Below the pieces are notes generated by a model, which worked only from the letters and a program-made list of their open reading frames with translations, did no database searches and was not told where the DNA came from. From Vulcanimicrobiota bacterium (GTDB lineage Bacteria; Vulcanimicrobiota; Vulcanimicrobiia; Vulcanimicrobiales; Vulcanimicrobiaceae), in assembly GCA_030041225.1 (NCBI GenBank), contig JASHOG010000040.1, positions 16,243 through 80,242 on the forward strand: DNA of 64,000 nt, written 5' to 3'. The position numbers and the translations under genes are program-made. Positions within the stretch are counted from its first letter, which is position 1, and each line of letters starts with the position of its first letter. Shown one piece after another: positions 28,460 to 30,458 of this stretch.

Positions 28460-29511
28460 CGTTCCAACGTGACGAATCCGGCGCTGAAACCCGGCCCCAT
28501 CGCGCTGACGAGCGCGCGCGACCACGTGCCGTCGCTCAACGCGCCGCCGGAGAGTGCGCGCGCGAGCACGAACATCACCGTTGCCGCCGACATGTTGCCG
28601 TACTCGCGAAGGGTCGCGCGCGCGTCTTCGAGGCTTCCCGGAGAAAGCTCGAAGACGTGCTCCAGGGCATCGAGCACTTTTACGCCACCCGGGTGCGGAA
28701 TGAACCGATCGAGATCGTGTAGCGTCAGGCCGCTCTCGGAGAGATACGCATCGAGGACGCTGCGAAAGCGTTGCTCGACGATCGCGGGAATGTCTTTGGA
28801 GAAGACGGCGCGCAGACCATCCGCGGCGACGTCCCAACCCATGACGTCGAGCGTCCGCTCGAAGAGGTGCTCGCCCGAGGCAACGACAGCAGGGCCGGGC
28901 CGGTCATCGCAGGCGAGCAACGCCGCTGCCGCGCCGTCGCCGAAGAGTGCGGTCGCGACGATGTTGCTCTTGCTGACATCGTCGCGCCGAAAGGATAGCG
29001 CGCAGAGCTCGACGACGAGGAACAGCACGAGCGCGCCCTTCATCTCCGCGGCGATGCTCGCCGCACGCGCAAGCCCGAGCGCTCCTCCCGCGCATCCGAG
29101 GCCGAAGATTGGAAGGCGCCGGACTGTGCGTTTGAAGCCCATCCGTTCGACGAGGAGCGCGTCGAGGCTCGGCGTCGCAATGCCGGTCGTGGAGACGACC
29201 ACGATTGCGTCCACATCCTCGACGCGTGCGCCGGCGAGCGTCAGCGCTTCTTGCGTTCCCTGCCCGAGCAGCTGCAGGGCGGCCTCGAGATAGACGGCGT
29301 TACGATCGCGCCAGTCGTGTTGCTCGTAGTACCACTCGATGGGAACGCACGAGTAGCGGCGCTCGATGCCGCTGTTCTGAAAAACCGGCAGGAGGTGCTG
29401 CACGACCGCCTCGTTGCTGAACATCGCACGAACGCGACGCTCGATGTCGTGCTGCTCCAGCACGTACGGCGGGACGACTTTGGCAATCGCTGCCAGACGC
29501 GGAGCCGTCAC
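28456..29511 (-). CDS. type III polyketide synthase (chalcone-synthase superfamily)
   Basis: 351-aa ORF with the Cys-His-Asn triad contexts PIFGLGCAGGA, FIPHPGGVKVL and EYGNMSAATV. Confidence 0.9.
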   Translation of the reverse strand: MTAPRLAAIAKVVPPYVLEQHDIERRVRAMFSNEAVVQHLLPVFQNSGIERRYSCVPIEWYYEQHDWRDRNAVYLEAALQLLGQGTQEALTLAGARVEDVDAIVVVSTTGIATPSLDALLVERMGFKRTVRRLPIFGLGCAGGALGLARAASIAAEMKGALVLFLVVELCALSFRRDDVSKSNIVATALFGDGAAAALLACDDRPGPAVVASGEHLFERTLDVMGWDVAADGLRAVFSKDIPAIVEQRFRSVLDAYLSESGLTLHDLDRFIPHPGGVKVLDALEHVFELSPGSLEDARATLREYGNMSAATVMFVLARALSGGALSDGTWSRALVSAMGPGFSAGFVTLER

Positions 29512-29586
29512 GAGTCTTGCCTGGGAACCGGAATTGTGGGATAGTATGAACGGCCAACGCTATTCCAATTCGAAGGGGAGTGAACC

Positions 29587-29889
29587 ATAGCCCGACCCAA
29601 CACCCGACGCAGAGACGCCGAACCGCGCCCGCCCAAGCCGCAATCGCAGGATACAAAAGAGGCGCCGCTCGAGGTCTTCGGGACCATCAAGCAGGTCTTC
29701 CCAAGCACGACGTTCGCCGTCGAGCTGGATAACGGGCACACGATCCTCGCGCACATCGCCGGGCGATTGCGCCGCCATCGTATCAAGATACTTCCCGGCG
29801 ATCGCGTCGATGTCGAGATATCGCCCTACGATCTGACGAAAGGACGCATCGTCTATCGTTACCGCGCCGGGGAGCCGCGACGAACGTAG
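29587..29889 (+). CDS. infA: translation initiation factor IF-1 homolog; start codon unresolved (no ATG/GTG/TTG in frame)
   Basis: Absent from the ORF track. The frame is open from 29584 to TAG 29887-29889. Residues [70 protein letters not shown] are collinear with bacterial IF-1. The 5' boundary is given as ATA 29587 (SD GAAGGGGAG at 29572-29580) and is tentative. Confidence 0.7.
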
Positions 29890-29912
29890 GCTCTTCAGCC
29901 GCGAAAGGCTTT

Positions 29913-30458
29913 GTGCTCGGCATCATCGTGACCATTCTGGTCGCGGTCATTGTTGCCTATGCGGGCGTCGAGCTGGGTTTCGTTCCGGCCAACGCCGACG
30001 TGCGCCCGGGGTTTCTGGAACGCTGGTTGGCACGGACGTCGTTGCAAGCCACACTCGCGCGCCAGTCGCGCGGCTTGACGGACCCGCTGCCCGATAACAC
30101 GCAGACGTTGCTCGCCGGCATCAAAATCTACGGCGAGAACTGCGCCTTCTGCCACGGCGACGCAAGCGGGCGCCCGACGGTTGCCGGATTCGGTTTCTAC
30201 CAGCATGCGCCCACACTCGGGCGGCACGGCGTCGAAGACGATCCCGAAGGGGAAACCTACTGGAAGGTCACGCACGGCATTCGGCTTACCGCCATGCCGT
30301 CGTTCGGGCGGACGCTCTCCGATACTGAGCGCTGGCAGGTGACCGCCTTCTTGAAGCACATGGATGCGCTTCCGCCCGTCGCGCAGCGCGCATGGAAGCA
30401 GCTCAGCGTTCGATCCGTTCCCGCGTCGCTGCTCCTTAAGCGACCGCCTCTTCGTTAA
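29913..30458 (+). CDS. membrane-anchored c-type cytochrome (single haem)
   Basis: 181-aa ORF with a GTG start. Has an N-terminal TM (LGIIVTILVAVIVAYAGV), the haem motif CAFCH and a distal Met context (IRLTAMPSF). Confidence 0.75.
   Translation: MLGIIVTILVAVIVAYAGVELGFVPANADVRPGFLERWLARTSLQATLARQSRGLTDPLPDNTQTLLAGIKIYGENCAFCHGDASGRPTVAGFGFYQHAPTLGRHGVEDDPEGETYWKVTHGIRLTAMPSFGRTLSDTERWQVTAFLKHMDALPPVAQRAWKQLSVRSVPASLLLKRPPLR

Follow-up and report, generated by a model that had tools for sequence, protein, structure and literature searches.

The question raised by this locus is how translation of an initiation factor gene begins when its reading frame holds no usable canonical start codon, and whether such a gene is functional. 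The DNA analysed, a stretch of 64 000 nucleotides referred to here as the window, belongs to a soil bacterium with the family label Baltobacteraceae in the phylum Eremiobacterota (Vulcanimicrobiota, WPS-2), whose closest relatives with a name are Candidatus Tyrphobacter. Inspection of the forward strand showed a frame homologous to translation initiation factor IF-1 (gene infA) that is open from 29584 to 29886 (101 codons) and stops at a TAG (29887–29889). The earliest in-frame ATG, GTG or TTG is a TTG at codon 61 (29767), within the OB fold, and a canonical start farther upstream is ruled out because an in-frame TGA (29581–29583) closes the frame. This TGA is located two codons 5′ of an ATA at 29587–29589. 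The ATA is preceded by a Shine–Dalgarno (SD) region, GAAGGGGAG (29572–29580), with its core GGGGAG at 29575–29580, and a 6 nt spacer, TGAACC, separates the two. A first-pass annotation of the locus had reported the lack of ATG, GTG or TTG before codon 61, the position of the TGA and an SD 6 nt before the ATA, and all of these sequence statements were borne out. It had proposed the ATA as the start codon or, alternatively, that the frame is a decaying second copy of infA.

The best overall explanation, to which we assign a probability of roughly 0.7, is that this frame is the sole infA of its genome, that translation would start at the AUA under the direction of the SD, that this weak start is maintained by selection and that it likely brings IF-1 under feedback from IF-3 and IF-1.

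Identity of the encoded protein

The product of the frame was matched over the full length of the IF-1 equivalog profile TIGR00008 (105.3 bits, cut-off 61.15; profile positions 1–69 of 69), the match spanning residues 24–92 (29656–29862, forward strand), and by PF01176 (88.9 bits, cut-off 30.2). Four solved IF-1 structures (3i4o, 2n8n, 1ah9 and 1hr0) aligned over residues 20–93 with E values of 6e-24 to 7e-20, and the NGH, AHI-G-R, ILPGD and SPYDL-GRI motifs were kept in this alignment. Since the full-length TIGR00008 match occupies residues 24–92 of this S1/OB-fold core, a start downstream of approximately residue 24 would cut into the fold. The core opens with KEAPLEVFG and is preceded by a basic, Arg/Pro-rich N-terminal extension of 22 codons (29590–29655). 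It is followed by a C-terminal tail, RAGEPRRT, which together with the stop codon occupies 29863–29889 and is typical of a paralogue termed type 2 here. An IF-1 copy was classed as type 2 when it shared at least 77 % identity with the core of the window gene, and RYRAGE(A/P)RR is kept in all type-2 copies.

The extension was predicted in the first-pass annotation from the position of the ATA, and its pattern of variation is that of coding sequence, which supports its translation. Among eight sequences of the genus with equal extension length, pairwise differences at codon positions 1, 2 and 3 numbered 217, 171 and 332, and codon pairs with a single difference were synonymous in 192 cases and non-synonymous in 83 (the pairs are not independent of each other). 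The proposed complete coding sequence therefore sums to 100 codons and a stop (29587–29889, forward strand) and, judged by its sequence, is a genuine, working infA.

A sole infA rather than a decaying duplicate

A second possibility is that the frame is a pseudogene or a decaying duplicate and that the true infA lies at another site or within the 5 % of the genome missing from the assembly. The state of the assembly leaves some room for this, as the genome is a 2.38 Mb draft in 138 contigs and is 94.7 % complete. A profile search with PF01176, however, gave a single match in this genome, and exactly one IF-1 match, of the same type, was present in each of the 10 same-genus draft genomes sampled. 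The usual map–infA–rpmJ slot was also inspected. The genes secY, adk, map, rpmJ and rpsM are contiguous on one contig (C107), and no infA was found between map and rpmJ on this contig. Only 73–99 nt lie between the C-terminal match of Map and rpmJ, both here and in the nine genomes of the genus in which rpmJ was found, so that the slot has no room for infA. In relatives from other genera the same site is occupied by a canonical, ATG-started infA, termed type 1, which indicates from gene order that the canonical infA is the copy lost in this genus.

Two further observations argue against decay. The core is 96–100 % identical between members of the genus and shows synonymous differences, and in another 51 Baltobacteraceae genomes, each with a completeness of 90 % or more, type 2 was the only IF-1 match. 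A count of infA copies that included the adk–map cluster, as suggested with the first-pass annotation, thus returned a single copy and an empty map–rpmJ slot, and the notion of a decaying second copy was refuted in favour of a sole IF-1 gene under purifying selection. The chance that a different, functional infA serves this genome is considered negligible.

Distribution of type-2 infA and conservation of its start

To place the window gene among its relatives, 201 genomes of the phylum, each at least 90 % complete, were searched. Type-2 infA was present in 107 of 131 Baltobacteraceae genomes, and none was found outside this family among the 201. It was the only IF-1 match in 51 of the 107 carriers, and in the genome of the window, while 22 Baltobacteraceae genomes had other IF-1 types only (canonical or a 65–66 %-identical variant). 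The gene stands alone and, in the genus of the window, is divergent from a type III polyketide synthase (PKS) gene. Two or three type-2 copies were present in some Baltobacteraceae genomes (G093, G129, G077, G111, G145, G158 and G122), and one copy in the last of these (G122:C2:1949678–1949899) is interrupted by an in-frame TAG.

Start codons were assigned at 88 distinct type-2 loci and comprised ATC (42), ATA (35), ATT (8), ATG (2) and GTG (1). In 49 of the 88, not one in-frame ATG, GTG or TTG lies between the upstream stop and the fold. The isoleucine codon taken as the start was positioned 17–25 codons ahead of KEAPLE in nearly all loci and 9–10 codons ahead in three (L027, L124 and L040), and some loci have tandem isoleucine codons among which the choice of start is ambiguous. 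Across the 88 loci the start codon is followed by alanine and a basic stretch with the consensus A-x-R-N-R. The consensus of 84 loci placed an A/G-rich, AAAGGAG-like SD at −14 to −9. An alignment of orthologues, proposed with the first-pass annotation, hence recovered the arrangement of an SD followed by ATA, ATC or ATT in 85 of 88 loci; the 14-codon upstream ORF (uORF) that had also been noted at the window locus recurred only in the closest relative among nine other loci of the genus. The assignment of the start, in that annotation, to the ATA at 29587 behind the SD is backed by this recurrence of AUA, AUC or AUU (AUH) at a position that has no canonical alternative. We consider it very probable, on this comparative evidence, that SD-directed initiation takes place at AUA 29587 in vivo.

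At least 19 changes of start codon state were reconstructed on the gene tree, which was built from core DNA only and is short and weakly resolved, and almost all of these were changes among ATA, ATC and ATT. A G at the third position is only one mutation away and would create the best start codon, yet it is almost never seen, which argues that selection favours a start other than AUG, as it does in infC. That the weak AUH start is kept by selection is strongly supported by this pattern of substitution. The three loci with canonical starts (L036, L041 and L059) are all from genomes without a functional type 1, which suggests that lineages with type 2 alone sometimes revert to a canonical start. 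Since ATG or GTG has replaced the weak start in these three lineages, with type 2 as their sole working IF-1, an AUH codon is not indispensable. One of the genomes (G023) keeps a broken type 1. This remnant (L043, in the map–rpmJ slot of G023:C1) matches type-1 infA over its C-terminal half only and is pseudogene-like; the type-2 copy of the same genome (L041) starts with ATG.

Decoding of the proposed AUA start

Other routes into the frame were also considered, namely a sequencing error that hides an ATG, a +1 frameshift from a GTG at 29580, reassignment of AUA to methionine or a special initiator tRNA. A GTG does lie just upstream at 29580, in a different frame. Against these routes, the start-less arrangement occurs in approximately 85 independently assembled genomes, the GTG is absent in relatives, and sister loci have ATC or ATT in place of the ATA. 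The genome of the window encodes three tRNAs with a CAU anticodon, of which one is a textbook initiator (C1–A72 mismatch and three G–C pairs in the anticodon stem), and its tRNA set was found to hold no UAU tRNA. A partial tilS is located at a contig end, and conserved isoleucine positions inside IF-1 itself are encoded by ATA. The frameshift was rejected on the non-conservation of the GTG, and a special initiator tRNA or AUA-to-Met reassignment on the standard tRNA set, the partial tilS and the use of ATA at conserved isoleucine positions. Any of these routes is highly improbable. Given this ordinary decoding machinery, initiation at the AUA would have to use fMet-tRNA with a mismatch at the third position.

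Promoter, leader and neighbouring genes

A putative −35 hexamer, TTGCCT (29517–29522, forward strand), is conserved in 10 loci of the genus and is positioned 17 nt 5′ of the hexamer GATAGT (29540–29545), which with a preceding TGG forms a putative extended −10 element (29537–29545). This element lies in GGGATAGT, which is nearly invariant across the genus, and the block TTGCCT-17 nt-TGG-GATAGT is the best-conserved upstream non-coding block in the genus. It resembles the promoter of infC in the same genome, TTGACA-18-TGG-TATAGT. A consensus scan of 29400–30000 for promoters and terminators returned nothing, with TTGCCT falling below the scan threshold, and the infA promoter is accordingly a putative one, called from conservation. 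From its position, transcription is predicted to start at approximately 29551–29554, giving a leader of approximately 35 nt. The predicted leader showed no excess of structure over shuffled sequence (z=+1.3), and no known leader or riboswitch was detected in 29300–30000 by Rfam.

The divergent type III PKS gene starts with a GTG at 29511 on the minus strand, 75 nt (29512–29586) from the ATA of infA. With only this distance between the two starts, the promoters of both genes must overlap or sit back to back; the −35 hexamer of infA is 5 nt from the PKS start codon. A cytochrome c gene (29913–30458) is located downstream of infA in the window. In another genus, a gene for a small double CxxC zinc-ribbon protein, MYSDETLNCVDCGRSF...VYCRDCF, is encoded directly 3′ of type-2 infA (L027:1015–1332, minus strand); the window has the cytochrome c gene in this place and no zinc-ribbon gene.

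The upstream ORF and a sister clade

The uORF comprises 14 codons from an ATG at 29546 to a TAG at 29588–29590 (29546–29590, forward strand), and the TAG overlaps the ATA as ATAG. The first-pass annotation had proposed that this geometry suits termination and reinitiation, such that ribosomes would translate the uORF, terminate at the UAG and reinitiate at the overlapping AUA. The geometry itself is present at the window locus, but the remaining evidence speaks against its use here. The ATG directly follows the conserved −10 hexamer (29540–29545) and should therefore lie upstream of the transcription start, and a read-through transcript is not expected because the upstream gene is divergent. 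Among nine other loci of the genus examined, the same uORF was shared only by the closest relative (L025, identical to L045); at the equivalent spot, two loci (L031 and L034) carry an ATG in other frames and the remainder have none. All other strong-SD loci with ATAG across the family are likewise without an ATG in the TAG frame, and the overlap with TAG follows simply from an ATA followed by a GCN alanine codon. The locus also has its own well-placed SD. The uORF is therefore probably untranslated here, and reinitiation at this locus is regarded as improbable.

A different picture was obtained for nine loci with a weak SD or none before the ATA of infA (L037, L039, L042, L070, L076, L079, L080, L114 and L121). 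These form essentially one clade, with two state changes on the tree. In eight of the nine, an ATG-started ORF of 8–9 codons (five in L121) ends in a TAG over the ATA, and in six the ATG is located 6–7 nt after a TATAAT, TATAGT or TATACT box. The presence of an SD and that of a uORF are almost mutually exclusive. The ORF and its position after the box suggest that the sister clade may use a leaderless mini-uORF with reinitiation at the AUA, and this uORF/AUAG arrangement makes reinitiation at AUA a plausible device within the gene family, as opposed to the SD-directed start favoured for the window gene.

AUH starts elsewhere in the genome

The analogy drawn in the first-pass annotation to the non-AUG start of infC proved apt. 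The infC of the same genome, which is outside the window, starts at an ATA (L044:1483–1485, corresponding to C84:34722–34724), a plausible canonical start being absent. The sequence around this start is GGGAG-TAACGCC-ATA-GCT-CGA-CCG, which encodes (M)ARPLRVNDQIRIR, and the corresponding context of infA is GGGAG-TGAACC-ATA-GCC-CGA-CCC, so that the residues after the start, A-R-P, are the same in both. Among the infC loci examined, the start was ATA in 17 of 17 from Baltobacteraceae, ATC in four from a sister family and ATT in nine at the class level.

A crude and noisy genome-wide screen was made for ATA, ATC or ATT codons behind an SD that open a long frame without a canonical start. The counts for these codons (39, 75 and 34) showed no excess over those for the comparable non-start codons ACA, ACC and ACT (57, 101 and 45), and widespread use of AUH starts in this genome is therefore not indicated. 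Besides infA, the screen yielded one additional convincing gene, with an ATC start. A candidate AUH start was seen at C82:33811 (minus strand), where a gene whose Rossmann-fold product, (M)ARVVVVGAGAIGG..., resembles 2-dehydropantoate reductase is located directly after tRNA-Cys; its apparent ATC start is 5 nt after GGAG, and no in-frame canonical start is present upstream.

Feedback or a fixed level of translation

In the proposed mechanism, a promoter dedicated to infA (TTGCCT, 17 nt, GATAGT) would give a transcript with a leader of approximately 35 nt and little predicted structure. The 30S subunit would bind the GGGGAG of the SD, and the ordinary initiator tRNA (anticodon CAU) would start at AUA 29587 with a third-position mismatch, yielding an IF-1 of 100 residues whose N-terminal tail is basic. 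Selection would preserve the AUH codon as a weak start, one subject to discrimination by IF-3. With the help of IF-1, IF-3 rejects such codons, and the infC of the same genome also starts at AUA; synthesis of IF-1 and IF-3 may therefore increase jointly when proofreading capacity is short and decrease jointly when it is ample, constituting a shared negative feedback. IF-3, supported by IF-1, is known to destabilize 30S initiation complexes on AUU, AUC and AUA, and infC autoregulation exploits this (PMC5499595). Engineered infA mRNAs with AUA or AUU starts were translatable, but both ppGpp and the use of extracts from cells short of nutrients inhibited them preferentially (He et al. 2017, PMC5499595). 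That the weak start links the output of IF-1 to the proofreading capacity of IF-3 and IF-1 and to growth state, in step with infC, would have about an even chance of being correct.

The main rival is that the AUH start merely holds translation at a low, constant level, the promoter and SD of the gene being strong, in which case no feedback from IF-3 or IF-1 would operate. Weak start codons widely serve as simple attenuators, and at least one other gene of this genome seems to start with ATC. In E. coli extracts, added IF-3 lowered the engineered AUA-infA mRNA by 20–25 % at most, as against more than 60 % for the AUU version, and in rich-medium extracts the AUA version was nearly insensitive (PMC5499595). 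However, infC in the same genomes uses the same class of codon, and a weaker SD could serve equally to lower translation, yet the SD is strong and conserved. Some coupling is also hard to avoid because the product belongs to the machinery that rejects such codons. A fixed level of translation is therefore rated as rather unlikely. Within the favoured reading of a start subject to feedback, AUA may be a weaker sensor of IF-3 than AUU, since added IF-3 lowered AUA-infA only slightly, and regulation by IF-3 is more secure than autoregulation by IF-1 because the contribution of IF-1 to discrimination is indirect.

A wider proposal, and a more tentative one that falls short of an even chance, is that IF-1 and IF-3 are co-regulated across the family through AUH-started infA. 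Two interchangeable builds would achieve this, an SD-directed AUH start or a leaderless mini-uORF with AUAG, and the gene would be the only source of this essential factor in approximately half of the carriers.

Comparison with known systems

The closest parallel is infC, in which an AUU, AUC or AUA start is associated with autoregulation by IF-3 (for E. coli, Butler et al. 1987 and Brombach & Pon 1987, cited in PMC9845219 and PMC5499595). Both are initiation factor genes with an AUH codon, conserved in relatives, behind a normal SD, and in both AUG is avoided though one mutation away. The two differ in that the gene here is infA, whose product is only accessory to start codon discrimination, and in that the feedback on infA is a predicted one. 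The AUH start of infA is moreover restricted to a single paralogue within a single bacterial family, unlike the nearly universal trait of infC.

Two other cases concern infA itself. In chloroplast infA a UUG is the functional start (Hirose et al. 1999, cited in PMC9845219), so that this is likewise a natural infA whose non-AUG start limits translation. UUG is nonetheless a canonical bacterial start to IF-3, whereas AUA, AUC and AUU belong to the class that is discriminated against. The AUA- and AUU-infA mRNAs of He et al. (2017, PMC5499595) share the gene and the start codons with the type-2 loci; these constructs are artificial, unlike the window gene. The survey of natural non-AUG starts in the accessible text of that paper names no infA case, and full-text searches of the published literature likewise returned no report of an AUH start on a natural infA. 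The arrangement at this locus would thus represent weak-start control of the infC type, new on infA, with a proposed feedback component.

A parallel in principle is provided by eukaryotes. The eukaryotic homologue of IF-1 is eIF1A, for which we know of no such autoregulatory loop. For eIF1, autoregulation through a poor start-site context has reportedly been described (Ivanov et al. 2010). Autoregulation of eIF5 operates via poor start-site context or uORFs (PMC3326321). As in the eIF1 and eIF5 systems, factors for start codon stringency would control their own synthesis via a deliberately sub-optimal start site; those systems rely on scanning and AUG context, whereas infA in the window would use an SD-directed non-AUG codon.

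The infC gene is the textbook case of a translation factor sensing its own activity via a non-AUG start, and a clade-wide AUH infA would extend this principle. The extension would weigh more since type-2 infA is often the only infA present. The gene also offers a natural system for asking what share IF-1 has in start codon discrimination in vivo.

Representation in protein collections

The product of the frame started at the ATA was absent from a collection of 15 billion proteins, as was the 40-residue product started at the TTG. The absence of the exact product indicates that gene callers miss this gene. Because standard gene callers either miss infA or assign it a wrong start, completeness estimates and annotation for Eremiobacterota will be slightly wrong; in the same collection, the infA copy of a relative was entered from an internal GTG.
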